Shown here one piece after another: positions 7,841 through 41,480 of a stretch of 56,616 nucleotides of DNA (its first letter is position 1; the number at the start of each line of letters is the position of its first letter). The notes beneath the pieces were generated by a model. That model saw only the letters and a list, made by a program, of their open reading frames with translations, searched no databases and had not been told where the DNA came from. Origin of the DNA: Asterionella formosa (Eukaryota); NCBI GenBank assembly GCA_002256025.1, contig NKIB01013488.1, positions 1 to 56,616 on the forward strand. Direction: 5' to 3'. The position numbers and the translations under genes are program-made.

Positions 7841-9523
7841 TCAAGCAAAGGTCCCTTCTACTGGATCCTGTTCCATCATTTTGGTGACATCGCCAGGTGA
7901 TAAACTCACTGCTGGACTGAAATTAACTTTTTCTGGTGACACCACTGTATGTATTGGTGATGGTGGAGCAGGCTCAACAATTTGATTGTCTAGCAAATCC
8001 ACAGCTCTCTGCAAGGGTTGAGGAGAACTACCCTGTCGTTTCGAATCACGTTCTCGCTTTCTCTCCAGTCGCTCCTGCTCCATTTTTGTTCGTTCTTCGT
8101 ACTGCTTCTGCTTCAAAACCATGAGCGCTTCCAGCTTGTCGACAAAATTGTCGACCGAGCCTGTGGAATTCAGCGAATGCATTGAATTTGCTAGTGTATT
8201 CTGTTCTGCGGACATACTGCATTCGATAATCAAGGACATCTGGGTACTATTGCTGATTATCGTACCGGGTGCTGCGGGTCCAAATTCAACCTGCTCTTCA
8301 TCTCCCTCTTTAGGGTTGTACATCAAGCACGGGGTTCCATCGTGGCGAGGAAAATCGCGAAAGGCAAAGGGAAAGCTTTGTTCCTGTACGGCTTCTGGCG
8401 GTTTTGTCGCCCATGGCATGGCCGAAGGTAAATTTCGAAACAAAAAAGCGGCGACACCTCCTTCCCACGACGACGTAGAATGCATAGAGTCATTGTTTTC
8501 TTGTTCTTCTTCTGTAATTGGCAACATTGGTTTGATGGCGCTCGTAGGAATCCTTTTCTTCTTCGACTTAACCTTTTTCCTCTCCACCGAAGGCTTGTCC
8601 GAGTGCAAAAATGATGCTCCATAAAGCAATTCAAATGGGTTGCTGGTGGCGATGTACCGCCTCGTAGCAGGTTGGTCGCTAGCAACAGCCACAGGTACGG
8701 CATTTCCGTCACTTCCATTGCATTGCGGGTCGCCGTTTCGCTGAAGGATTTGATCATTAATATTTCGTCCAATGTAGGCGTCTCTAGCTTCGTCGTCGTA
8801 CATGCTTTCCGGTCTTGAATATCTCTTTTGCCGCTGGTCCAATCGGATATAAAACGATATAAGGGAAATGGAACACAATAGAAAGAATATCAAGAAACTC
8901 AAGAACATAATTTCCGCCTGAGACCAGCCGCTTGACGACGACGGCGTGGAAGCTGTTGGGGTTGCAAAGTTTTGCAGGTTAATATCAACCGAAAGATTTT
9001 CCACACTAGGAAAAGATCTGGTGACGCTGGCCTTGAACTTGGAAAAGTCTGTCTGAAGCGCTTCAGTCACGAATATTCGGATGAATTCATCTGCTAGAGT
9101 AGACGAAGGACGATTGACCGAATCGATAAATGCCATAGTCCCATACAATTCAGCATAGTACTGATGCTGGGTCGAAACTGCAGTTTTCGATTCTTTGAGG
9201 TTAACCTTCAAGTCTACAGTTTGCAAGTCCTGAAGAGTCGTTTGTGAATGAATTGAAGAAATGGAAAAGTAATCCTTGAGGTAAGCTTCAATATTTTCCT
9301 TGAGGTTGATGGATACTTGAGACAAAGTTTGAGAGCTATCGTAGGGAAGAGTAAATAAGACGGCGAAGGGTGGAACATTGTACAGGGCTAAAGTTTGCGT
9401 CCTTCTGTTTGTGGAATCTGACCATGGTGATGCCAGACTGGACGTTGCACGAGTACCGGAAGCCGTGATCAACAGCAACAGCAAGGTGCAGAGGAACAGC
9501 AAAGGCTGTGCGGTAGTTATCAT
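7841..9523 (-). CDS. Type I single-pass membrane protein (signal peptide, SEA-like ectodomain, long disordered cytoplasmic tail), 560 aa
   Basis: Hydrophobic N-terminus LLFLCTLLLLLITASG; TM segment IMFLSFLIFFLLCSISLISFYI followed by basic RLDQRQKR. The ectodomain pattern is shared with three other genes in the window. Confidence 0.85.
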   Translation of the reverse strand: MITTAQPLLFLCTLLLLLITASGTRATSSLASPWSDSTNRRTQTLALYNVPPFAVLFTLPYDSSQTLSQVSINLKENIEAYLKDYFSISSIHSQTTLQDLQTVDLKVNLKESKTAVSTQHQYYAELYGTMAFIDSVNRPSSTLADEFIRIFVTEALQTDFSKFKASVTRSFPSVENLSVDINLQNFATPTASTPSSSSGWSQAEIMFLSFLIFFLLCSISLISFYIRLDQRQKRYSRPESMYDDEARDAYIGRNINDQILQRNGDPQCNGSDGNAVPVAVASDQPATRRYIATSNPFELLYGASFLHSDKPSVERKKVKSKKKRIPTSAIKPMLPITEEEQENNDSMHSTSSWEGGVAAFLFRNLPSAMPWATKPPEAVQEQSFPFAFRDFPRHDGTPCLMYNPKEGDEEQVEFGPAAPGTIISNSTQMSLIIECSMSAEQNTLANSMHSLNSTGSVDNFVDKLEALMVLKQKQYEERTKMEQERLERKRERDSKRQGSSPQPLQRAVDLLDNQIVEPAPPSPIHTVVSPEKVNFSPAVSLSPGDVTKMMEQDPVEGTFA

Positions 9524-15361: not shown

Positions 15362-16333
15362 ATGCAAATGATTGCCTCCCGACGTTTGGTGTCGATTCTA
15401 TCTTACTTGGTGCTGATCGCATCACAATCAATCATAGGCATCACCGCTATCAACGAGGGAGGTATAACACTGACGGACCTTCCAGCTATTGACCTCAATT
15501 TGCTTGTCAAGGAATCATCATCCGTAAATCTCTACTCATTCCGATCTGCCCTGATCGAATCACTCTATTCTCACCTCACATCTACGTTGGAAGAATTGCT
15601 TCCTAAATTCGCTCTGATTGGCGTTTCCCTCGATTGTAATTTGTTAAGGTTGGCAAACAGCGATTCCAGTAACAATCTAGCCTCCCTTGAAGCAGTTTGC
15701 AGTGGAGCAACTCTTGTGAATAGTACGTTGGGCTTCCAGGCGGTTGACATGCATGTGTTTGTTTACGCGGCCCTTACCGGGGATCACTATCGACAGCTGA
15801 TAAGTCGCTTCGCAGCAGACGACTTACTTTCTACCATTCAGAGCGTTGAAGTTTTGGTGGAAAGTGCCTTGATTAATCTGAAATCTTTGTCTGGTGAATC
15901 TGTGACCGCATCGTACAACGAGACACCAAAGTGGAGATTGCCTCTGCTTGCCGCGTTTTCCACTGTATTGGCTGTCTTTTCCCTTTGTATATTTGTCTTA
16001 TTGTGGAGAAAGTACATCAACGGTTTTTGTGGTGTTAAGACTGGATGCGAAGAAAAAGTGAATGATAATGACAACAAAGATGAAAATGATACTGAAATGG
16101 GATCTGAAGATGGAATTGATGCCAAGTCAGAATCACCCACAAAGTCATCACCGTCACGACGTCTTTCGATGCCAGTTTCCAATCTGAGCATGATTGATGA
16201 AGGGGAAGATGAAGACTCATCTATTCGGAGCAATTTGTCAGCCAAGATAAGCAAAATGCTGGGCAACAAGCATCTGCATCTTGTTGGTCATGACAAGGAG
16301 GGCAATCCAGTGGTTGAGTATATATCTGTGTAA
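15362..16333 (+). CDS. Type I single-pass membrane protein with SEA-like ectodomain, 323 aa
   Basis: Signal-like LVSILSYLVLIASQSIIG; TM segment LPLLAAFSTVLAVFSLCIFVLLW followed by RK; acidic Ser-rich tail. Confidence 0.82.
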   Translation: MQMIASRRLVSILSYLVLIASQSIIGITAINEGGITLTDLPAIDLNLLVKESSSVNLYSFRSALIESLYSHLTSTLEELLPKFALIGVSLDCNLLRLANSDSSNNLASLEAVCSGATLVNSTLGFQAVDMHVFVYAALTGDHYRQLISRFAADDLLSTIQSVEVLVESALINLKSLSGESVTASYNETPKWRLPLLAAFSTVLAVFSLCIFVLLWRKYINGFCGVKTGCEEKVNDNDNKDENDTEMGSEDGIDAKSESPTKSSPSRRLSMPVSNLSMIDEGEDEDSSIRSNLSAKISKMLGNKHLHLVGHDKEGNPVVEYISV

Positions 16334-25423: not shown

Positions 25424-27418
25424 ATGCAAACAGCAGGGTTGTTCTTGGTGCTAGCAGTAACGACTGCATATGCCAGTAGTCAAAATGCACCTTTGCCCGC
25501 TAATTACCACAACGATCTGTATCACTGTTTCCTTCAAGTCGTCAATAATTTAGCCACCGGTGACGACAGCGTCGCATGTGATACGGGAAGTTACCAATGG
25601 ATCATCGCGAATCTGAACCCAGATCAACCCCCGACACGTTGCGATCATTTAGACTTGCTGTCAGTTATTCCCGATAGTACTGACGACGACAGTTTGGAGC
25701 CTTGCATTCTGTGGCAATTAAAATATGGGTTCTTGGGCTCGATTGCTCCTACCGATTTTCCTTCGGATGTTTCTTCCGAAGTTCCGACTGGTGAGTACAC
25801 TGATGTACCGTCAAGTACAGCGACTAAAGCGCCATCATCTGATCAGCCATCCACCACACCATCAGTAACGCCGACGGACACACCAACAGAATCGCCATCT
25901 GCGGTATCAAGCACTTCTCCGTCATTGGCCCCTTCGGAATTCGTGCTTGAGAATAAACCCTCTGTCACTCTGGCCGGTGTCTCTCTCTCCTTTTGGGTAG
26001 TGCCCGCCATTCGAACCAGAATGCTTAGACGACAACTCCAAACAGACATTAACCAAGATGCCATACTGGAAGAACTTCAAGACCACATCAAAACGTATCT
26101 CTCTGAATCCCTTTCCATGGAACTTCTCGCTGTTGTGTTGACCATTAATTACAGTGTTTCAGTCAGCGAAAAGGCCACTTTGTCACGGTTTGACGGTTCT
26201 GTTTACTTCCGTGAGGACGAGGTCAGACCGAGTGCCTCGACCGTTGATTTACTCACTAACGCAGCCTTCAAGGGTCCTTCACTCGATGCATTGATGACCT
26301 CTTTCAACAACAACCCTCAACTGGCATATATTAAACAAATAAAGTTGGAGGACGAAGCTGCTGTAGTGTCGTCGATTTTGGCCAATAAAAATTCCAAGAG
26401 CGACAGCGCTGGTGGTCTTACTTCGACCATGATGATCGTATATTGCGGTATTGGTGCCGGGGTGCTGTGCATTGCCTTTCTCTCCTCCTTTCTCTTCGTC
26501 AACAGGAAACGCGCCGATCCTCGCGCCGATCCTCACGCCGACCTTGTCAAGAATAATACGGAGCTCACTTCGCCACGCTCTGCTGATCCCGAGAACGGAC
26601 AAGACTTTCCCGACAGTCAGTCAGATTCGTCATCAGTATACTCATACATTAAAGACGAAGGCTCTGTTTCCATTGCACCTTCGTATATGTATGCACTCAA
26701 CGAACAATCTTTTGATAATTCGGAAGATGACGAGTCACTACTCACCCCAACCTGGGGAACAGAACCCGAGAGTCCTAGAGCTGCTGCGTTGATGAATGTC
26801 CAGCGACATGTACCCGAAAGTGCCCCTTCCAGTCCTAGCAGATCATTTGTCATGACAGACGACGAAAACTCAACTTGTAGTACAGACTTGGAGCGTGTCT
26901 TGGATGTTGAAAAGTTTCGACCGCCAATAAAACGATCCTTCAAGGATTTATGGAAGGAGGGTGGTGATGAGCCACGCCGCAAAGGGATCACAGAAGGAAC
27001 TGTTCCAATGGTGATTGTTTCTTCTCGACCTTCTAAAGACCCAGCAATTTCACAGCATGAGTCACATGTTCCTCCAGAGGGAGAGACGCTCGATTGGAAG
27101 TTGACATGTATAAGTTCTGATGAGCAGGATCATATTTTTGTTCCAGATGAAAGTCGAGATAAATCTCTTGCCGATTTGAGCAACATTGAAGAAGTTACTG
27201 TTGCAACAGAGGGCGACTATGTCGTGCCAGAATTCTTATTCCAAGCAGAATATTCTATAGAATGCAATAGTGACGACAAAGGCATTTATGAGACCGACGA
27301 AGAAGCCGAGAAGGGTGGCAACAGACTTCTGGAATTAAGTTTTGACACAAATGTTGATGTTAGCAAGAACACGAGTCAGAGTTTTCTAGGTGGGACTGTC
27401 GAGGAAAGCCTTGTTTAG
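25424..27418 (+). CDS. Type I membrane glycoprotein: Cys-containing N-domain, P/S/T mucin-like stalk, SEA-like domain, TM, acidic tail; 664 aa
   Basis: Signal peptide MQTAGLFLVLAVTTAYA; xPS/xPT tetrapeptide repeats typical of diatom secreted proteins; RMLRRQLQ basic motif; TM segment MIVYCGIGAGVLCIAFLSSFLFV followed by NRKR. Confidence 0.88.
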   Translation: MQTAGLFLVLAVTTAYASSQNAPLPANYHNDLYHCFLQVVNNLATGDDSVACDTGSYQWIIANLNPDQPPTRCDHLDLLSVIPDSTDDDSLEPCILWQLKYGFLGSIAPTDFPSDVSSEVPTGEYTDVPSSTATKAPSSDQPSTTPSVTPTDTPTESPSAVSSTSPSLAPSEFVLENKPSVTLAGVSLSFWVVPAIRTRMLRRQLQTDINQDAILEELQDHIKTYLSESLSMELLAVVLTINYSVSVSEKATLSRFDGSVYFREDEVRPSASTVDLLTNAAFKGPSLDALMTSFNNNPQLAYIKQIKLEDEAAVVSSILANKNSKSDSAGGLTSTMMIVYCGIGAGVLCIAFLSSFLFVNRKRADPRADPHADLVKNNTELTSPRSADPENGQDFPDSQSDSSSVYSYIKDEGSVSIAPSYMYALNEQSFDNSEDDESLLTPTWGTEPESPRAAALMNVQRHVPESAPSSPSRSFVMTDDENSTCSTDLERVLDVEKFRPPIKRSFKDLWKEGGDEPRRKGITEGTVPMVIVSSRPSKDPAISQHESHVPPEGETLDWKLTCISSDEQDHIFVPDESRDKSLADLSNIEEVTVATEGDYVVPEFLFQAEYSIECNSDDKGIYETDEEAEKGGNRLLELSFDTNVDVSKNTSQSFLGGTVEESLV

Positions 27419-27734: not shown

Positions 27735-30083
27735 TTACTCGTACAGGTCAATAGGTGACAGATATACATTTTTCATCTCGCCGTCGATTTCTATTGTTTC
27801 AAAGTGCTCTTCTTGTGGCTTTTCCTTCGCCTTTCTGTTTTTGCGTTGCTGCTGATACGCTGCTGACTGTTTGTTCCATGACCGCCAAGATTTCTTCTGA
27901 CTATCAACTTTCGATTTCTCGTCTGCAATCAAGGAGTTTGTTTCATCAGTTGTAAACACGCTTTCTGTTTCTGATGGCGCTGATTTTTTCACATTGCTGG
28001 CGCCGAACATGGCCACCAAATCTGGACCGTCCATCATTTTCTGTTCCGTCGAATTCACAGAGAGTGACCTTTGATGAATCCTTATGCTCTCTTTTCTCAC
28101 ATTGTTCCCCGCAGGGTCGCATTCTGGCAAAGGGTTGGCTGTGGTGGAAGGATGATTTGCAAGAATGTCTGGGAAGTCTCCACAACCTGAGGCGGAACCA
28201 CGTGACAAAATAGTGTTGCAAATGGTTCCTTGCTCCTTCGTTACCCCGAACTCTTCATCAGTCGTGCCTGCCAATTGCTGTTCAAGAGTCAACTTGTTTC
28301 TTCGGATGCGTCGACTCTGCAATGCAGCTGTAGCTAGAGCAGCGACAATGACAATTCCACAGATGATACCTGCAATTAAAGCAATCGAGGTCTCACCATC
28401 GCCATTGCCATTGCCGCCTGAACTGCTGTTGCTTACCTCAGATTCAGATGCCACCTTACGCACCTCGATCGAGGTTATGTTAATTTTAGAGTCATGTAGC
28501 GCCTGCACAATCATGCTAACGGAATCCTCACCGAAGAAGTCCACAAGAAGTCTAGACGCATTCTTTCCATCAATGACACTTAATTGACCTGAATTGTTAC
28601 CAGATAGCTGAAGCGACAGATCAATCTCGGAGGAAACAATGGTTTGTGCATTGTCGGTGAGACGACGACCCACACCTATTTGCGATCCATCAACGATGAT
28701 GAATTTCATCCTGAGGCTAAAGCTCGAAAGAATATTTCCTATTCCATGCTTCAAGAAGGGACCAAGCAGACGTTCCACTGTGGCATAAATATCGTCTTGA
28801 ACGACCGCCAACTCAAACGATCCTCGAAAGTAAACCATTATCGGCGAGGCCATAATTTCTTTTTGGTACTCATGAACGCTAGGTGAAGCGGACGGAAACA
28901 GTTCGGGCGATTGCGTTGGTTGTGTGGCTGGTAATCCGCCATCATTTGCTATCAACCTAGTGGTTGGCTTCATTGTTTGTGCCGGCGCATTTGAAGGTAT
29001 GGCAGTTGGGGGCCGTTCCAAGGGACCTGAAGAAGGAGGAACAGTCGCTGAAATGTTAGGCGAATTTGTTGGAGACGCAGCTGGTCCTGTATTATCTGGG
29101 ATCGAGGTCGATCCTGCAGGAGGATTAGCTGGAACCGCATTCGAAATATTGGAAGGATGAATAGTAAGGGGCGCTAGGGAAGGTCGCGAAGTTGACAGCT
29201 CTTCGTCCAGTAGAGGCGTGTTCACAAGATTTGAATTCCCAGGGGTTTTGGTAATTGGAACAGCTACTGGGCTAATATCCGGAGACAATGTAGTTTGAGA
29301 AGTTGAATAGAACTTCGGAGTGCCTGTAGAAGGAGGTTCTGTCATCAAGAGCGGAGGGACAACGGGAGAGCCAGCAGGTGAGCTTGCTGGGGAGTCACCA
29401 ATTGGAGCGCTCGATGGTGCTTTTGCATTTGCCTGCTGAACTAGAGGAGACGGTTTGTGTGGCTTCGAAGTGGGCATTGGAACACCTACTCCACCATCAT
29501 GTCCAGATTGAACATAAAATGATAACACTGGATTTGTTGTGTATACGCTATCTGCAACAATAGAAGGAGCCATAACATGAATTCCTGTGGGTGCACTACC
29601 AGCAACCGCTGGTGAAGACACGGCAGGAGCAGATGTGATTGACACATCCGCAGCATCAATAGCCGCTGGTTTCGAAGATTTCTTGATTTTATGTTTCTTT
29701 GATTGTGTTGGTGATGATGATGGTGCTGCAGTGCATACGTCCAAGAAGTGTGAGGTGAACGAAGGAGGCGTACGAAGCTGGAGCGACATTGTAGTTTTCA
29801 TCTGCTTACCTTGTCCACCTTCGCAATTGCGGGTTCCTTTGACTTTTTTGCTCTCCTTACATTTCCCCAATTTCCCATTGTTTTTCTTTGGCTTCCGTGC
29901 CCCCTTAGGTTCGACGGCTTTGAGACTACCTTTAAACTCACTCAAGCTTTTTTGCAGCTGACTTCGCTCATCTTCTAACTTCGAAATTGCAAGCTTAGTT
30001 TGATCCGACGCTCCTGCATTAAACGCCTCAGTGATGTGGCTTGATAACATCCATGATATGATAGAGACGAACAAGATCTTCAT
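27735..30083 (-). CDS. Type I membrane glycoprotein: Lys-rich N-terminus, long P/S/T/A stalk, SEA-like domain, TM; about 782 aa
   Basis: Signal peptide MKILFVSIISWMLSSHITEA; GRRLT motif; TM segment IALIAGIICGIVIVAALATAAL followed by QSRRIRR. Confidence 0.88.
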   Translation of the reverse strand: MKILFVSIISWMLSSHITEAFNAGASDQTKLAISKLEDERSQLQKSLSEFKGSLKAVEPKGARKPKKNNGKLGKCKESKKVKGTRNCEGGQGKQMKTTMSLQLRTPPSFTSHFLDVCTAAPSSSPTQSKKHKIKKSSKPAAIDAADVSITSAPAVSSPAVAGSAPTGIHVMAPSIVADSVYTTNPVLSFYVQSGHDGGVGVPMPTSKPHKPSPLVQQANAKAPSSAPIGDSPASSPAGSPVVPPLLMTEPPSTGTPKFYSTSQTTLSPDISPVAVPITKTPGNSNLVNTPLLDEELSTSRPSLAPLTIHPSNISNAVPANPPAGSTSIPDNTGPAASPTNSPNISATVPPSSGPLERPPTAIPSNAPAQTMKPTTRLIANDGGLPATQPTQSPELFPSASPSVHEYQKEIMASPIMVYFRGSFELAVVQDDIYATVERLLGPFLKHGIGNILSSFSLRMKFIIVDGSQIGVGRRLTDNAQTIVSSEIDLSLQLSGNNSGQLSVIDGKNASRLLVDFFGEDSVSMIVQALHDSKINITSIEVRKVASESEVSNSSSGGNGNGDGETSIALIAGIICGIVIVAALATAALQSRRIRRNKLTLEQQLAGTTDEEFGVTKEQGTICNTILSRGSASGCGDFPDILANHPSTTANPLPECDPAGNNVRKESIRIHQRSLSVNSTEQKMMDGPDLVAMFGASNVKKSAPSETESVFTTDETNSLIADEKSKVDSQKKSWRSWNKQSAAYQQQRKNRKAKEKPQEEHFETIEIDGEMKNVYLSPIDLYE

Positions 30084-33454: not shown

Positions 33455-34178
33455 CGTCTTCGAAATGGTCGTTGTCTGGATTAGTGGATTAGTATGGTGT
33501 GCCTTGCTCCTTCTTATCAGTATAGCTGCAACAGAAAGATACAGTACCAGGTACATAGGTACGAGGGTACCTGAGGGAGGTACCAGGTAATGGTACCTGG
33601 TACCTGCTACCTTGTACCCTGGTACCACTATGCACGATGCCGATCACAGCGGCCACGGTCCTTTTATTGAACCACGCCGGCGAAATAAATATGAATGCTG
33701 GAATAGTAGATTGGAGTACAAGAATAGCATAGTGCAGGTGCTATATCGTCTGGTATAAGATATGATAGAATATATGAATATAATCTTAGATAATCCTGAT
33801 AAAGTACAGGTAGTCAAATCATTGACTTGACTGTTGCCTTCCGCAGGTCCCTTTTGACGTCCACCGCCGGCGTCATGGTGGGGGATACGACGTGGAAAGC
33901 ACAAGTCAAGGCGACGCTAGCGTTGCAAATGCCTTGTAGCAAACACAGGAATTGTGACCACGTAAGTTTCGCCTGGAACATAATTTTGCAATTTCATTCC
34001 ATCATGACACAGAAAGAGGTCTTGTTTGTAAGATTGTCGACATCTTCCAAGTTTGCATGCCTGATTATCACCCGAATGCAAGCAGTATGGTACATGTCAA
34101 GGAATTTTCAGGTTTTGACTTGCCACGGTATTCCGGATGCAAGCTGTGCATGATTTCAAAGTATTTACTGTTAACTTT

Positions 34179-35714
34179 CTAGTTGTATCCTAGTGGTCGT
34201 GTAACAGTCGGTCGCCACTCTCCATAGAAATCATCATTTCTCGGACCTGTGATTGCTTCGTCACAATTACAATCACACACGCACGAGCCATTCTCGCAAA
34301 AGCAATCGCAGCAGTCATCACTGGGAGAAGTGGAGCCATAATTGGACCCGCCATCAGACTTGGAGGTACCGTACTCAAGCTCGTGGGGCTTTTCATATTT
34401 ATGCACTTCAGTTTTTTCATATTCCGGCAATATATTTTCGGGAAACTCGTACTTCTCCCCCTCACAATCAGGTCCTCCTTTTGATCCCCTGCTCTTTCCT
34501 CCCTTTCCTTTTCCTCCTTTGCTTTTTCCTCCCTTGCTCTTTCCTCCCTTTCCTTTTGCTCCCTTGCCCTTGGATCCCTTGTACACTGGAGCCACTACAG
34601 GCGAAGCAACAGGCTTGTATACAGGTGGTATTGGCTGAGGTATCGGTGCAGAGTAGTCATTACCATCCTCATACGACCCAGTCTTTGAGCCCATAGAGAT
34701 ATCGTCACCAGCCTCATAGGAGCCAGACTTGGAACCATATCCCGGGAGTTCTTTGGGACAATTGCAATCACAGAGGCAAGAGCCCTTCTTGCAAATGCAC
34801 GCGCAGCAGTCATTGTTTCGAGATTCGGAGCCAGATTTAGAACCACCAGACGTGGAGCCATCCTCTGGTTCTTTGGGCTTTTCATATTCAGGCACCTCAG
34901 TTTTTTCATATTCCGGGAAAACATTTTCAGGAAACTCGTATTTCGCCTCCTCGCAATCGGGTCTTCCTTTTGATTCCTTGCTCTTTCCTCCCTTTCCTTT
35001 CCCTCCTTTACTTTTCCCCCCTTTGCCTTTTCCACCCTTGCCTTTTCCTCTTTTGCTTTCGACGTCGTAGCCTGCACCTTTGGAAACCGGGGCCACTACA
35101 GGCGAAGCAACTGGAATATATACTGGTAGTATTGGCTGAGGTATCGGCGCAGAGTAGTCATCATCTTTAGGATTCAACCCAGTCTTTGAGCCCATAGAGT
35201 AGTCGTCACCCGCTTCATATGAACCGGACTTCGAACCGCCAGACTTGGAGCCTCCTCCACTGCCTTTTCCAGACTTGGATGCGCCCTCTACAGACGAGCC
35301 TTGTCCATAAGAACCAGACTTGGAGCCAGACTTCGACGCAACTCCTTCAGTGGAACCCTGCTCGTGAGAACCAGACTTGGAGCCAGACTTCGAGGCAACT
35401 ACTTCAGTGGAACCGGACTTGGAGCCAGACTTCGAGCCAGCTCCTTCATTAGAACCAGACTTGGAGCCACAATTGCAAATACAATCGCAGTATTTGCCGT
35501 TGTCGCCTGCGTCCTTTCCATAGTCGTAACATTCACATTTGCAGCAGTCTGCCACACTGTTGTTTCCTGCCGTGCTGAATGAGTAGTTGTTCCCGACCAG
35601 CACGCGACGAGTCGCGTCGTTGTCAAAAAAAGTCTTTACTCCTCTCAGTTTAGGTCGTGCCGAATCGACTATACATAGTGACATAAGCAAGACTGAAATG
35701 AGGAACACAGTCAT
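34179..35714 (-). CDS. Secreted Lys/Ser/Gly-rich, Cys-cluster repeat protein (silaffin/cingulin-like cell-wall protein candidate), about 511 aa
   Basis: Signal peptide MTVFLISVLLMSLCIVDS; propeptide-like KLRG...RRVL; repeated GSKSGSKSGS and KGKGGKSKGG; three DCCxCxC...CxCxCNC clusters; an internally duplicated module of about 160 aa. An alternative start lies at 35726. Confidence 0.85.
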   Translation of the reverse strand: MTVFLISVLLMSLCIVDSARPKLRGVKTFFDNDATRRVLVGNNYSFSTAGNNSVADCCKCECYDYGKDAGDNGKYCDCICNCGSKSGSNEGAGSKSGSKSGSTEVVASKSGSKSGSHEQGSTEGVASKSGSKSGSYGQGSSVEGASKSGKGSGGGSKSGGSKSGSYEAGDDYSMGSKTGLNPKDDDYSAPIPQPILPVYIPVASPVVAPVSKGAGYDVESKRGKGKGGKGKGGKSKGGKGKGGKSKESKGRPDCEEAKYEFPENVFPEYEKTEVPEYEKPKEPEDGSTSGGSKSGSESRNNDCCACICKKGSCLCDCNCPKELPGYGSKSGSYEAGDDISMGSKTGSYEDGNDYSAPIPQPIPPVYKPVASPVVAPVYKGSKGKGAKGKGGKSKGGKSKGGKGKGGKSRGSKGGPDCEGEKYEFPENILPEYEKTEVHKYEKPHELEYGTSKSDGGSNYGSTSPSDDCCDCFCENGSCVCDCNCDEAITGPRNDDFYGEWRPTVTRPLGYN

Positions 35715-36547
35715 TGGAATTGACATTGTTGTCGTCAGATGCAACAATATACCCAAAATGAGAATGAGTGAAAGACCTGGAAAACACATTTGCGAGGAGT
35801 GAGCATGACCAAAATGTTGTTTCAAGGGCAAACTGTATCAAAGCGCATAGGCATCATATAAATCAAACATGTAGCAAAGGAATACAAACCCCAAAGCCGC
35901 AAGGTGAAAGCCAGTGAACGATTGGAATGACTCTACGGAATGTATTGGCCTAGACTTCAGCTTGCTTCGCCAATTGAATTTCCCAGCCCTGCATCGAAAA
36001 GTATCCTCCAGTTTTATCGAAGTACTGCTCCATCATTCAATGTCATCGGCCTGACAACATCTTTGTTTTCAGTTTGATCGTACCTTAACAGTTGATTCGA
36101 TTTTGTGAAAGCCCAAGAGGTAAAGAAGGGAGTTTTACAATTTTGGCTTTGCCTTGGCAAAAATTTGGCAAGACATGCCGAAAGCAACATGTAAAACATA
36201 GGTGGCACGGCCGTCGCATCTATATATTTAACAGGGATTTCTGGTTTATTCGACGGATAGTCAAATATTATTATTATAATGAATTCGGCGGGAAATAAAT
36301 TGTTCTGTTTTGCTTTTTATACTGGCTTTATTTTCCAATTTAAATCTATGATCATGCCTGTAGATCATAAATACGACGCATAGGTGGCAGCTTCACTTTT
36401 CTCACCTACCCGGTAGGAAACTCGCTCCGTTGATAGTATTCGATCACGCCAGCCATCGTGAATACAAATATCTTCTCGAAACGAGTTGGCGCGTCCCGGT
36501 AATTGGAATCTCAAACCAATACCGCTATGTTACAGTATACAATGCCA

Positions 36548-36636
36548 GCAAGTTGCGTTAGTTTTGATGAACTAAAACTTTAGCTGATTTTATCTAAAAT
36601 TAAATTGTCTATTTCAGCAAAATGACCCCAACTTGC
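36548..36636. mobile_element. 89-bp miniature inverted-repeat element
   Basis: GCAAGTTGCGTTAGTTTTGATGAA ... TTCAGCAAAATGACCCCAACTTGC. The termini match those of the 4855-7055 element. Confidence 0.7.
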
Positions 36637-37019
36637 AGTGTATGAAATTCATCCTTGTTTGATTAGCTCGAGGCCGTTATTCAATACCGGTACCTGGTAC
36701 CTGGTAGTCAATTCTGTATGATATGGCTGATAGACACAAAAATTGAGGACATCGGGTAGGCTCATGTTGACTGACGGTACAGGTAGTACTACAACGGATA
36801 ACCCTAACCCTTCTAAAATTTAAATTATAATACGCTACTTTCTCTACAATTCTCAACATTTCCTTTCAAAAATATTCTTCACTATGACTAGAATAAACTG
36901 TGTTTGTTTGCTCCCATTTTATCTTTACTTTGATCACAGCCATTTCCTGAAAGTCATAATGCTCTCCTGAAAGTCGTAGTAGCCATATGCTGGTGTGTGT
37001 TCTCGTTTTTGCAATCAGA

Positions 37020-37221
37020 AAAATTCCGCTATTTAGTAGAAGATGGTCTTTATATTTGATAAAATATGTCGCTGTCCGGTAACACATTGACCGTTTCAGG
37101 AAAATGACCGCAACTTGCATGTACAGTACAACAACCGGATGCGGTCATTTTGCTAAAATAAACAAATAAATATGGGATAAAGATAGCTAATTCCTAAGTT
37201 CAGCAAATGACCACAACTTGC
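37020..37221. mobile_element. Orphan TIR end (to 37118) plus an oppositely oriented about 86-bp miniature element (37136-37221) of the same family
   Basis: CGCTATTTAGT...TTTCAGGAAAATGACCGCAACTTGC matches the right end of the 2.2-kb element. It is followed by GCGGTCATTTTGCTAAAAT...TTCAGCAAATGACCACAACTTGC. Confidence 0.7.
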
Positions 37222-37247
37222 TGGTACCTGGCACTCCGAGTATCAGG

Positions 37248-40200
37248 TAAAGTATCTAACTAGAAGTAGCAGTTTTTGTTGAATATATGCGCTTGCTATT
37301 TAAGCCTTGTGTGCAAATCAATCTCGAGGTCGACACCAAAGTATTCAATAAGGGTTAGTAGAGTTCTCTCATTATTGAGTTCTGATATATATGATATAAC
37401 TCTAATTCTATATACATCTGTATTGATGCGCGGGATCGCTCACTCTCCTACAACAAGGGAAAAACCTTTTACCTATGCAAAGGGTTGATGCAATGAATAT
37501 TAGTTCATTCCGTAATATGCATTGTTTGTTGAAAAGTAACTGTACCATTGCCATGTACTTGAATAATAGAATAAGGACCTTGTTCACGGTCATACAAGGT
37601 AGTAGGATTATCCAATAGGATTGAAATCTCGTCACCAACTTTGCAATCACAAGAACGAAAACAGAAACTAGCACGACGTAGACTTTTGTCAATTATCACT
37701 TGTCGACATTGATATCCCAGTTTTAATTGCAAATCTGTATCAAATGAATATCAAATATCATATCATTTTGGAAAACCCATGTTCCTGGTGAAATACGCAA
37801 TTTACTATAAATAGTAGCTCGAGCTGCATATGATGCAGCTGTAAAACATTTATCAACAATATTCTGAGCTTAAAATTCCTTGATTGGAGGATGAGCCTCC
37901 ATTGTCATGTGTACAACCGACGAACGTTCTGGACGGAGATATCTGTTCAACCAATCATTTTCAAATTTCATCGCAATATATTCTGATGTTTTGTTATTGA
38001 TACGTGAAATTTCTGGTAAATTGGTGACTGTGTTAACTCAAGTTAGAGCACGAGATTCAATCTCTTGTGCAGCCACTGTTATCTTCAATGGACCAATTAT
38101 TAAATCTACTGTGACTTCTGATCATTTTAATAACAATGCTTTACTTGATGGAAGTTCACCAAAAAACCATACCCAGCACCTTGTAATTTTGTATTTTTTG
38201 ACATGCTTCACATATGCCTACAAAATGTTCCACTCTTACTTTTAATGTAGCTAAGATGATAAAAATGTGTAAGGAATTATTGCAGCATTTAATTTCGTCA
38301 TACCCACATTTTTTAACAATAGGATGCAATAGTTATGTAGGAATATCAATACGCCAAGTATCTCTTGGATTCTTCACAAAACATATTAAATTTATATCAT
38401 GAAAATTGATAGAGGGAAATTTTAACGGATGTGTTTGTTGATTGAGAATCAATTGTATATCCAGCAATTGTCTATGATTTATTAAATTATAATCCAGAGG
38501 ATATTGAAGTCTGCCAAGATTTGATGATTAAGGAAACAGGTAAACAGAGATTCATCATCCAATTCAATTGAGAAAGTAGAAGTGGATGTTGATGCTGAAG
38601 ATATCGGCCCAATATCATTTTCCACCAAAGACTCAAGCCTCGGGAGGCTAGAGGTGGAATCAGTAATAGTTAGCATTATCAGTACCCTTCACATCGTGAA
38701 AAGTAAGAAGATATTCTTCAATCTAAAGCCTCCACCGGAGAACACATTCAGTGTGTAAGTTATTATAAATAAAATTATGATGATCAGTGTGAACACGTAG
38801 AACCGCATCCAAAAGCATAAAGCAAAATTCTTTGAAAGTTTCTAGGATAGAACGTAATGCTTTGTCAATAATGGCACAATTTTTTTCTAGGCAAAAGATA
38901 ATTTGCAAGAATGAAAAGCAACCGGGAGATCATTTTGCATAATGACTGTCCCCAATTGATAATCAGACACATCAGTAAAAATATGGAAAGGAAAATTATG
39001 ATCAGGATAACGCATGAGTGTATCTGCAACTAACAAAGCTTTCATTGATTCAAAAGCCTGTTGATCTATAGGTAACCAGACAAATGGACCAGTTTCCACA
39101 TTAATTCCTTTTTAATTTTGAAGACCAAAATTTGAAGTCGGTTGGAGTTTATCGATATCCCAATGAGTCAGTTCCTTCAACATACCATTTCATTTTAAAT
39201 TGTGTTTGATAATTTGCGGTTAAATTTATTTTCAGCCATAATAGCAGCATTCCGTATCTGTATAGTTAACAGCTTCAATGTTCCATGTGTAAAAATAATC
39301 CTTGACAGGTGTATCAAATTTTAACAACCCAATATGTAAATGTTTGTCTGTCTCATTTTAGGAATCAATGACATGCAGAAAACACTGATATATTCACCAT
39401 ACAGGATTTTTTTTTGCGCAAAATCAATCATAATTTAACCAGCATGAAAAATTAGTAAGCTATCAGCCAGAAAGTATTAAGAACAGGCACTTCTGTTGCA
39501 GGATACAAGCTGACGAGTTGAATTTTGGGAGCATCATGTTTTATGAAAGACGACTGGCAAAGGAAGAAAAGATACCTGCTATGCATGATATATATTAATT
39601 ATAAATGTTCGATGGACAACGAAATATCCTGAAGAACAATCCGTTCATAGGTTACTAAAGATCAGGACCCACCGCGATAAAATAACATTCATATGTCATG
39701 TATATACACAGCAGCCACAAATCCTGGGGTTGCTAATGAAATGCAATGAAGCTTATGCATTCTTAGTTAAAGAAAGAAATGAGACAGGAATCAATCCTTG
39801 AGATGTGCATATGGGATGATATATTGAATCCACCTTTGAATTTTAAATATCCCGCGTTACAATAGCGGCGATATACAGCCTGTAATTATCCTTTATTATA
39901 GCAAATGTTATCCAGGCAATGTTTGACGTAAGACATATTCAATGTGCCATCATAGCTGCATATATATACATATATATATATTGCTATGATTGTCGCACAT
40001 TCTTCTGTTAAGGCGATCTGTTCAGCATTCTTCTGGTTTCTAGGCACAAACGCGACTAGCTGACTAAAAGGCAGGAGGGTTCGTGACCTCTAAAATTTCC
40101 TAGGCAGATTCATATAAGTCGGCAGGTATGGCCCTCGGCACAGTACCCTATCCAGACATCAACATAGGGCGGCCCTAACCAGACATCAACATAGGGTCAA

Positions 40201-41252
40201 CCCGAGGATTTGTAGAAAATATACATGGAAGAAAAACATGAACAGGTTTATCTGTGCCAGTATTATGATAATTCACTCTGCATGGAATTTCCACGCCAGA
40301 AGAACATGAACAGGAACAGGGCTAGTAGTGTTGTTAGTAATGTTAGCTAACTCGACATTATCCTTGAATGATTGTTGATTCTCGAAGTAAGTCAAAACCA
40401 AGCGAATCATTTGTGTTGTGTTCTTTTCATTTTTCCATTCAAACCTTTGCTGCCACACATTGGGTATAAAGTAAATGACAATTAACCTCAAATTGGCCTT
40501 GGCCAACAAGACTTCCTGATCTTCTGGATGAGGTATCATTATTTTGAGGAGCTTATTTAAGGTCTTGAGATAGGCAGCGAAGTCGATCATCAACATATTG
40601 AGTATTATCATGGCATCCACTGATGCTGACTCTCAGAGATATATCATGAAGAAGGTAATTCTCCAGCCACATCACCATGACTTTGTTAAGACAGTCATGG
40701 GACTGAGCATCTGGGTGTATTGCAACGCTCATCCAGTCAGAAAAGACGATATCTTTGAGTCATCTTTTGCAGCAGTAGGAGAACAAGCAAGGAATCTGCT
40801 GAACTGAAGCTTCATGTGTGAGCCATCATCATATGATCACAGGATTTACTGAAATCAATCAACAAACTTCCACTGAGTGTTCATTGATCACATCTTCGTT
40901 GAAAGACTGTAAACAATGACCTGGTAGGGATACACAAAGAGGTCTGAATTATGATGTTTAGTATGTTGTTATCCATCATCAATGGGGCCACTGGAACTTG
41001 AGAGGACAGTACATCAACATGATTATTAATTCCAATTGGACTCTTTTGAATTCAAAGTGAAGTATCTCACTAGAAGTAGTAGTATTTGTTGAATATATGA
41101 GCTTATTAGTTAATCCTTGTGTGCAACTCGTTCTCTAAGTTGACACCAAAGCATTCAATAAGGGTTAGTCCAGTTCTCTCATTATTGAGTTCTGATATAT
41201 ATGACATAACTCTAACCCTATATTCATCTGTATTGATTCGCGGGATTGCTCA
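37248..41252 (-). mobile_element. Decayed, internally deleted Ty3/gypsy LTR retrotransposon; LTRs 37248-37442 and 41058-41252
   Basis: Two 195-bp direct repeats (TG/TA...CA) with about 24 mismatches by manual count. Flanks TCAGG and CCAGG form a near-perfect 5-bp TSD. A purine tract (minus strand GTAGGAGAG) abuts the 3' LTR. RNase H remnants (AFESMKALL...YPDHNFPFHIFTDVSDYQLG, VHTDHHN) precede integrase-like remnants, which is gypsy order. Confidence 0.92.
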
Positions 41253-41480
41253 CCAGGGCGGTACACACATAGTGCTAAATCCTGATGGAGTGTATCATAG
41301 AAATAAAATTTTCTATACAGGTATCTGTATATGTTTGATGTACATACGATCTTTGCCGTATTCGAAATTATCTGCCGTAGCGGTCTACTTAGACCAAACA
41401 TAAACCCAGCATTTCAAATCTGTGGGAAAAATCATGCACATTTTTCCGTCCATGATCAGAGTTGAATATATTTAAAAGTC

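Follow-up and report, generated by a model that had tools for sequence, protein, structure and literature searches.

The window analysed here is a 56,616-nucleotide (nt) stretch of Asterionella formosa DNA (assembly GCA_002256025.1, contig NKIB01013488.1), and its minus strand carries a real, transcribed gene encoding a putatively secreted, largely disordered block protein, P0001, of 511 amino acids (aa). P0001 is best filed with the silaffin/cingulin kind of biosilica proteins, as a form distinguished by cysteine hairpins and Gly-rich lysine tracts. We put at about 45% the probability that it is a lineage-specific member of this loose kind of biosilica-matrix wall proteins, stapled by disulfide hairpins; that it sits in the wall, is modified and is cross-linked is inference. 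An earlier note on this DNA listed SKSG units, two Lys/Gly tracts, Pro/Val linkers, Tyr/Glu segments and three Cys clusters, and all of these are present; re-translation and motif counts find the open reading frame (ORF) and every listed motif at the places given there. The aa numbering is that of the 511-aa P0001 unless the 536-aa frame, counted from the first in-frame ATG, is named. The coordinates of all parts were re-translated, with agreement throughout.

Composition and screens for silica-shell proteins

P0001 is rich in Gly, Ser and Lys, and contains 5% Cys, 3% Thr and 6% Pro. It has 12 SKSG, 5 KGKGG and 3 KSKGG motifs, the latter two confined to the two Lys/Gly tracts. Tandem Repeats Finder reports a 15-nt period under these tracts and a 42-nt period under the SKSG units. 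Five of the seven SKSGS units continue with x-Glu and form Ser-x-Glu (aa 83–170 and 327–350), which is the motif of secretory-pathway casein kinases. Basic, acidic, hydrophobic-linker and cysteine blocks take turns along P0001, and no membrane anchor is present.

The N-terminus is a probable endoplasmic reticulum (ER) signal peptide, at a start codon that is ambiguous. The Kyte–Doolittle 11-residue means are 2.4–2.9 across aa 27–41 of the 536-aa frame, followed by DSA and then by R, and AlphaFold2 models a helix at aa 2–18. The hydrophobic N-terminus is in line with the signal peptide claimed earlier.

The published criteria are taken here from excerpts of the papers cited. The Scheffel screen asks for a signal peptide and for a 100-aa stretch in which Ser makes up 18% or more and Lys 10% or more (quoted second-hand in PMC3478156). 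In P0001, 90 windows of 100 aa have this composition, with starts between aa 33 and 133. The Brembu 2017 screen comprises a signal peptide, repeated KXXK (X = S or G) 1–6 residues apart, and RXL (PMC5501833). P0001 has 10 K[S/G][S/G]K, mostly one residue apart, including four successive KGGK in each tract. The silica-targeting penta-lysine cluster is described as five non-consecutive Lys in 12–14 residues (Brembu 2017, PMC5501833; PMC9650480), and in this looser form it is found in 17 windows of 14 aa that begin with Lys and hold five Lys or more, all in the two tracts. The lysine-enriched regions of cingulins follow K(X)nK, with n = 2–4 and X = S or G (PMC9650480). This pattern is present 14 times; when the residues of P0001 itself are shuffled 20,000 times, it averages 0.89 occurrences and never exceeds 6.

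The RXL domain, a short stretch that follows the signal peptide and has R-X-L at its end, is described as typical of diatom biosilica proteins (PMC5525289). The stretch aa 21–39 (19 aa) ends in RRVL, the motif pointed out in the earlier note and located at aa 36–39, and may be cleaved there. The only other RxL site of P0001 is RPL at aa 506–508, three aa from the C-terminus, much as the frustule-located Tp12162 is described with an RXL five aa from its C-terminal end. Cingulins also alternate KXXK regions with Trp/Tyr-rich regions (PMC4557024); likewise, the tracts at aa 221–249 and 379–411 each precede a segment with 3–4 Tyr (aa 253–285 and 416–449). As a candidate biosilica-type protein, P0001 therefore passes the applicable Ser/Lys, KXXK and RXL screens, and fails the strict penta-lysine expression discussed below.

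A composition of this kind may also be convergent low complexity. P0001 would then be a secreted matrix protein of another structure or life stage, such as the organic casing, the auxospore, the resting-stage wall or a surface coat. This would fit the library searches, which gave no homologue of known location, and the composition screens of Thalassiosira pseudonana, which gave 89 candidates, few of them localised so far. In contrast, lysine clusters together with an RXL domain are reported to have sufficed for finding new T. pseudonana frustule proteins, and the A. formosa gene occurs in the RNA libraries of three studies, from natural or cultured vegetative populations. A matrix role away from the silica wall is regarded as rather improbable.

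Cysteine clusters and their predicted structure

P0001 contains 27 Cys, one in the signal peptide and 26 beyond it. Three CCxCxC and three CxCxCxC motifs build three 8-Cys clusters, each of 17–26 residues, and two single Cys sit in a conserved PDCE motif. CxCxC is found nine times, while merely 1,219 of 20,000 own-residue shuffles contain even one.

The structure was modelled with AlphaFold2 on the single sequence, without an alignment. The model of P0001 has a mean predicted local distance difference test score (pLDDT) of 42, and 430 of the 511 residues are below 50. Apart from the signal-peptide helix, secondary structure is modelled at the Cys clusters only, where each of the three has a pair of strands; the rest is coil, and the protein is predicted to be largely disordered outside the clusters. 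Cluster 1 has strands at aa 58–64 and 74–80 (block pLDDT 54–67), cluster 2 a hairpin of aa 305–309 and 312–316 (block pLDDT 58), and cluster 3 a hairpin of aa 469–474 and 477–482 (block pLDDT 72–75 across two independent runs). The third hairpin recurs in a separate AlphaFold2 run on the last 146 residues, with block pLDDT 73–75. The turns in clusters 2 and 3 are x-G (K-G and N-G).

In our own reading, with the register taken from the modelled strands and not from coordinates, the two Cys in each of the pairs 473–478, 471–480 and 469–482 would stand opposite one another on the two strands. In CC, the first Cys would lie on the other face, and the last Cys would stand across from an Asp. The modelled geometry is thus that of a cystine ladder plus two spare Cys per unit. 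A predicted complex of two copies of aa 452–500 has a score of 0.01 against a mark of 0.32, and this bears neither for nor against self-binding.

Theta-defensins are described with three parallel disulfides joining two antiparallel strands (excerpt of PMC10096437). Clusters 2 and 3, in which four residues separate one CxCxC from the next, appear to fit the register of this ladder in our reading of the model. However, theta-defensins are 18-residue, backbone-cyclised, cationic primate peptides, whereas the unit here is acidic, lies within 511 aa and has two extra Cys. Laddered disulfide β-hairpins of the theta-defensin type are a known antimicrobial scaffold, and P0001 might accordingly be seen as a polyprotein precursor cut into small signalling or antimicrobial peptides, such as free disulfide hairpins or cationic Lys/Gly peptides. 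Such a precursor is extremely unlikely, as the Cys hairpins are acidic and not cationic, and the two RxL sites lie at the extremes of the protein with none between its repeated modules.

The Cys motifs also recall metallothioneins, since CXCXC, CCXC and CXCXCXC are among nine motifs given as defining metallothionein families (excerpt of PMC7216689). The description "metallothionein-like" in the earlier note holds for the motifs, and fails on the signal peptide and on the overall Cys content of 5%. Metallothioneins are small and cytosolic, in contrast to a protein of 511 aa with a probable signal peptide and no metallothionein match in Pfam, and metallothionein identity was rejected on these grounds. 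A secreted or wall-bound metal binder, in which three reduced 8-Cys units would hold Zn, Cd or Cu thiolate clusters on a polycationic carrier, would make use of the same motifs and of the density of 8 Cys per 17–26 residues. The signal peptide, however, would route the protein via the oxidising secretory pathway, the metallothionein families of Pfam give no match up to an expectation value (E) of 10, and the modelled Cys face each other across strands in the geometry of a disulfide ladder. Metal binding as the main role is very unlikely.

Comparison with known matrix and wall proteins

Cingulins: Cingulins are components of the insoluble microrings of the girdle bands, and the CinY proteins carry a conserved "UM" motif. 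P0001 shares with CinY1–3 and CinW1–3 of T. pseudonana a probable signal peptide, an RXL site, the alternation of repetitive K(S/G)nK with aromatic residues (here Tyr), and predicted disorder. It differs in having no sequence similarity to them in library searches, which detect low-complexity proteins poorly.

Silaffin-like and KXXK-motif proteins: With the silaffin-like proteins (SFLPs) and the KXXK-motif proteins, P0001 has in common the hydrophobic N-terminus, Ser/Lys windows, KXXK repeats, Lys clusters and RXL; both classes are operational, resting on composition, with neither common ancestry nor a demonstrated function required. A silaffin in the proper sense is extracted from biosilica, carries polyamine-modified lysine and phosphorylated serine, and precipitates silica.

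Cysteine-rich wall proteins: Diatom wall proteins rich in Cys are already known, including the frustulin ACR domains, the pleuralin PSCD domains and the silicanins, and in the silicanin Sin1 all 18 Cys are reported to be in disulfides. Silicanins (and SiMat7-like proteins), frustulins and pleuralins resemble P0001 as Cys-rich proteins of the wall or the silica deposition vesicle, some of which bear an RXL domain in addition to a signal peptide. However, the ACR, PSCD and silicanin domains are folded, comprise 50–340 aa and have other Cys spacings, and silicanins have a transmembrane anchor that P0001 lacks. No silicanin, frustulin or pleuralin is among the matches in the whole-protein library searches.

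Disulfide staple of DPY-6: The mucin-type protein DPY-6 of the nematode cuticle has a CxCxCxC "disulfide staple" strand, forms disulfide-linked antiparallel dimers and organises the extracellular matrix. Deletion of the staple disorganises the cuticle of C. elegans, and the excerpted text reports the domain in nematodes only (bioRxiv 10.64898/2026.02.24.707637). P0001 has three CxCxCxC, each modelled as a strand, and shares with the staple the alternating Cys on a β-strand of a secreted matrix protein, with the thiols on one face. In contrast to DPY-6, two such strands adjoin and are modelled as an intramolecular hairpin, and the likeness is probably not one of homology. By analogy, the staple may be taken as the nearest published counterpart for a matrix protein.

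Synthetic polymers: In block copolypeptides of poly(L-cysteine-b-L-lysine), the silica shape varies with the oxidation state (excerpt of the review PMC4557024), and [KGKGG]5 is described as a laboratory condensate-forming polycation. The redox-dependent silica shapes given by the Cys-Lys copolypeptides make the combination of Cys and Lys in P0001 chemically meaningful. Both polymers are man-made, and the likeness is one of working principle and not of ancestry.

Adhesive proteins: The same blocks could serve an extracellular adhesive or mucilage protein of colony-linking pads or surface attachment, in which Lys/Gly/Tyr blocks would stick to surfaces and polyanions while the Cys units cross-link the glue. 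Mussel and sandcastle-worm cements contain Lys/Gly/Tyr-rich and Cys-rich proteins, and P0001 is putatively secreted, disordered, and bears Tyr and Cys. The diatom adhesive proteins CaFAP1 and CaTrailin3 are likewise described as modular, with low-complexity parts alternating with Cys-rich repeats of no known domain (excerpt of bioRxiv 10.1101/2023.03.06.531300). In contrast, the diatom trail proteins of the same source are 40–78% Pro, Thr, Ser and Gly, compared to a Gly/Ser/Lys-rich protein with little Thr and Pro, and P0001 shows the lysine patterns of the silica-targeting type. The source runs are from lake water or freshwater, which says nothing firm on the life style. An adhesive is held to be a rather unlikely identity.

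Reading frame and transcription

The gene is a minus-strand, intron-less ORF at 34179..35789, which gives 536 aa from its first in-frame ATG. The ATG at 35714 gives the 511 aa and stop of P0001, and further in-frame ATGs are at 35789 and 35726. The remaining frames across 34179–35789 contain short low-complexity ORFs only. The start codons at 35726 and 35714 both yield a classical signal-peptide-like N-terminus.

The whole stretch or part of it is contained in 20 of the 24 listed public runs (13 studies), with 8 recorded as RNA. Every labelled run containing the gene is a lake, freshwater or "algae" sample. Contigs from all four RNA-library runs examined (X5, X6, X14 and X15, from three studies) lie along the coding sequence (CDS) and are collinear with the DNA. 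Such contigs reveal neither strand, expression level nor true ends, and their depths were not used for ranking expression. The only non-collinear joints are two of low depth that skip a module, from 34571 to 35025 in X5 and from 34523 to 35032 in X6. The probable 3′ end of the transcript is near 33906. The 5′ contig ends vary, and lie at 35777/35778 in X14 and X15 (two studies) as against 36090/36097 in X6 and X5 (one study).

By our own reading of the sequence, 35790–36090 contains ten ATG triplets, which argues against this region as a usual 5′ untranslated region. Because of these triplets and of the X14 and X15 contig ends, we think that translation begins at 35726 or 35714 rather than at 35789. 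The contig extension of about 300 nt upstream of the ORF (35790–36097, one study) perhaps reflects alternative or strain-specific starts, or an unrelated overlapping transcript. Further upstream, 36171–36472 and 36775–37076 have no contig cover in any of the four RNA-library runs.

Module duplication and selection

The two modules of P0001 (aa 160–325 and 327–491; 166 and 165 aa) are 71% identical in protein and 78% identical in DNA, which confirms the duplicated module of about 160 aa claimed earlier. Both have the same order of parts: an acidic head with SKSGSYE, a Pro/Val linker, a Lys/Gly tract, PDCE with the acidic Tyr/Glu/Pro segment, a Ser/Gly part and a Cys cluster. Over 162 codons the pair has a synonymous divergence (dS) of 0.71, a nonsynonymous divergence (dN) of 0.17 and a dN/dS of 0.23, with a bootstrap interval of 0.14–0.38. 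The two modules are therefore an old duplication under purifying selection, in which the peptide sequence itself, and not the composition alone, is retained. All nine Cys positions per module are identical between modules A and B. The Pro/Val linker is the most conserved segment, with a proportion of nonsynonymous differences (pN) of 0.06.

P0014, from an independent metagenome contig, is a 184-aa fragment with 99% identity in which the front of module A is fused to the back of module B within the Lys tract. Together with the matching low-depth RNA joints, it represents either an allele or copy-number variant that lacks one of the modules, or a collapse of the 15-nt Lys/Gly repeat during assembly.

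Searches for relatives

Pfam gives no family for the whole protein (E up to 1) or for the three Cys units (E up to 10), and among PDB sequences no chain matches the protein or the 8-Cys unit. Neither the whole protein nor aa 455–511 has a usable match in the ESM Atlas. In a word-indexed library of 5.8 billion clusters, 8,000 low-complexity candidates for the whole protein were scored and none reached E 0.001. With aa 412–511, the same library gave two candidates and no match near the query length, and P0014 only at shorter lengths. An index-free phmmer search of 1.84 billion representatives of any length found the single match P0014. The 8-Cys unit, earlier called an undescribed mini-domain, thus retains that standing in Pfam, PDB and the libraries, the fragment of the same gene being its only match.

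Searches of metagenome contigs add little. A pattern from the alignment of the two modules gave 249 matches, none upheld by tblastn, and is uninformative. The degenerate DNA pattern for CCxCxC-x4-CxCxCNC gave at least 134 matches at no fewer than 121 loci; the target gene itself was not returned, so the result has no bearing on absence. Among the matches listed, one has exactly 8 Cys, in an unrelated 64-aa Arg-rich frame, and the rest are simple repeats of the TGY type that read as poly-Cys. One metagenome contig (locus L084) has a 109-aa frame made of nearly all NCDC/NCNC repeats, probably a simple-repeat artefact. A text search of the literature did not find SKSGSKSGS and found CDCNC as noise only. 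The search for CXCXC-type motifs with "diatom" returned only a metallothionein review, and that for silaffins in freshwater genera returned ecology papers only among the matches listed.

P0001 is thus probably an orphan as far as Pfam, PDB, the Atlas and the sequence libraries show, where low-complexity proteins match poorly. Among three centric species, the excerpted study reports no soluble silica protein common to all and 21 of 92 as species-specific, and presents orphan, species-specific silaffin-like proteins as the rule among silica-associated proteins (bioRxiv 10.1101/2021.09.18.460806). Because such orphans are usual in the field, the "new class" proposed in the earlier note is too strong.

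Evidence against a silica-matrix protein

Several points weigh against placing P0001 among the silaffin/cingulin kind of wall proteins. The strict penta-lysine expression K..K..K.{1,2}K..K (Skeffington et al.) has no match in P0001, where the Lys spacing alternates between 2 and 3. The lysine tracts are Gly-rich, in contrast to the Ser-rich lysine-enriched regions published for cingulins. Ser-x-Glu occurs nine times and is not significantly enriched (shuffles 5.1 ± 2.0; 1,081 of 20,000 reach 9). Silaffins, cingulins and silacidins are described with one or no Cys, and cingulins as entirely random coil (excerpt of PMC5525289). This agrees with the earlier statement that silaffins and cingulins are generally Cys-poor, and the 26 Cys beyond the signal peptide and the three modelled hairpins of P0001 depart from it. 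The confidence of the hairpins is modest, and no alignment stands behind the models.

The RNA evidence also has its weak points. The X14 and X5 contigs run unbroken from the downstream neighbour gene into the target, and some DNA carry-over or read-through is therefore possible. Five of the six RNA-contig differences within the CDS alter a residue. These differences do not look like tight between-strain constraint, in a small sample where repeat contigs can be chimeric.

Proposed mechanism

For a wall protein of the silaffin/cingulin kind, we infer each of the following steps. The signal peptide would bring the protein into the ER, and an RXL-type protease may clip the short propeptide ending in RRVL. 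The part of lysine-rich polycations that target silica and interact with it would fall to the K(S/G)nK units and to both (KGKGG)n tracts; in known silaffins, such lysines bear polyamines. Negative charge would be contributed by the Ser-rich SKSGS-x-E units, with serines that are perhaps phosphorylated, and by the Tyr/Glu/Pro segments. With charges alternating in this way, the blocks could assemble among themselves, or form coacervates together with long-chain polyamines and further polyanions of the wall.

Each 8-Cys unit would form a β-hairpin, with three cross-strand pairs (473–478, 471–480 and 469–482 in cluster 3, for example) making a cystine ladder. The first Cys of CC and the last of CxCxCxC in each unit, plus the PDCE Cys in each module, would have no in-register partner. 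These spare Cys might form intermolecular disulfides, and the soluble protein would become an insoluble, oxidation-dependent matrix.

In a speculative extension, P0001 would be a natural counterpart of the Cys-Lys block copolypeptides, that is, a silica-matrix protein with three cystine-ladder hairpins as redox-set cross-linkers. The hairpins would be an undescribed secreted mini-domain that resembles the "disulfide staple" of nematodes by convergence. Whether the charged blocks form a soluble coacervate or a fixed silica-patterning template would depend on oxidation, either at the cell surface or within the silica deposition vesicle. This full version is unlikely.

Features and genomic surroundings

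The coordinates of the parts of P0001 and of the span under RNA-contig cover are collected in Table 1.

Table 1. Features of the P0001 gene, in positions of the window.
Feature	Position	Strand	Basis
CDS, 511 aa + stop (P0001)	34179..35714	-	ORF, motif counts, RNA contigs
Hydrophobic N-terminus, probable ER signal peptide, aa 1–20	35655..35714	-	hydropathy, modelled helix
Candidate RXL propeptide domain, 19 aa, ends RRVL, aa 21–39	35598..35654	-	motif; definition PMC5525289 (excerpt)
Cys cluster 1, aa 57–82: CCxCxC, 13-residue loop, CxCxCxC	35469..35546	-	motif, model
Ser/Lys/Gly region with SKSG(SKSG)S units, aa 83–165; shares 6 residues with start of module A	35220..35468	-	
Module A, aa 160–325	34740..35237	-	self-alignment
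Module B, aa 327–491, part order as module A, Cys cluster 3 at end	34242..34736	-	self-alignment
Pro/Val-rich linker A, aa 189–210	35085..35150	-	
Pro/Val-rich linker B, aa 356–377	34584..34649	-	
Lys/Gly tract A, aa 221–249, (KGKGG/KSKGG) units	34968..35054	-	
Lys/Gly tract B, aa 379–411	34482..34580	-	
Acidic Tyr/Glu/Pro segment A, one conserved Cys, aa 253–285	34860..34958	-	
Acidic Tyr/Glu/Pro segment B, one conserved Cys, aa 416–449	34368..34469	-	
Cys cluster 2, aa 303–319, 8 Cys in 17 residues	34758..34808	-	motif, model
Cys cluster 3, aa 468–484, 8 Cys in 17 residues, Asn-Gly turn	34263..34313	-	motif, model
C-terminal tail, aa 485–511, RPL three residues from end, without hydrophobic anchor	34182..34262	-	
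Span under poly(A) metatranscriptome contigs of run X6	33906..36090	-	contig cover

The window is eukaryotic nuclear DNA, and the neighbours of the gene comprise a Nop58-type small nucleolar ribonucleoprotein (snoRNP) protein, a PIG-X-like protein, a FUT8-like glycosyltransferase and a leucine-rich repeat (LRR) protein. Upstream of the gene, the region 36545–37443 contains an inverted repeat with 68-nt arms (36563–36630 and 37140–37207). A 197-nt direct repeat of 88% links 37247–37443 to 41057–41253. The depth of the RNA contigs spikes at about 36599–36706, 37077–37252 and 37356–37443, and each spike is flanked by loose ends. Taken together, these repeats and spikes look like multi-copy transposon fragments.

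Four other ORFs are found at 7841–9523 (minus strand), 15362–16333 (plus), 25424–27418 (plus) and 27735–30083 (minus). By eye, each looks like a signal peptide leading into an ectodomain rich in Ser, Thr and Pro, with a single membrane span and then a tail of acidic residues, and none has a match in Pfam. Paralogy of these ORFs to one another or to the target was rejected, as blastp was not significant. The ORF at 25424–27418 belongs to a 9-member cluster from metagenome and transcriptome sources.

Significance for silica-forming proteins

The function is known for few of the proteins that form silica in diatoms, and these proteins have been studied almost wholly in marine model species. The gene would add a freshwater candidate that joins the lysine/serine grammar of these proteins to a compact Cys unit that the literature says such proteins lack. 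Even outside the wall, the protein would still be of modest interest, as an orphan of the matrix that is expressed and has a Cys unit not described before. The 17-residue hairpin or the 165-residue module is a concrete object, simple to make, for asking whether disulfides help turn soluble silaffin-like proteins into insoluble silica templates. Both are also suited to asking whether the shape of the silica responds to the redox state, as with synthetic Cys-Lys copolymers.

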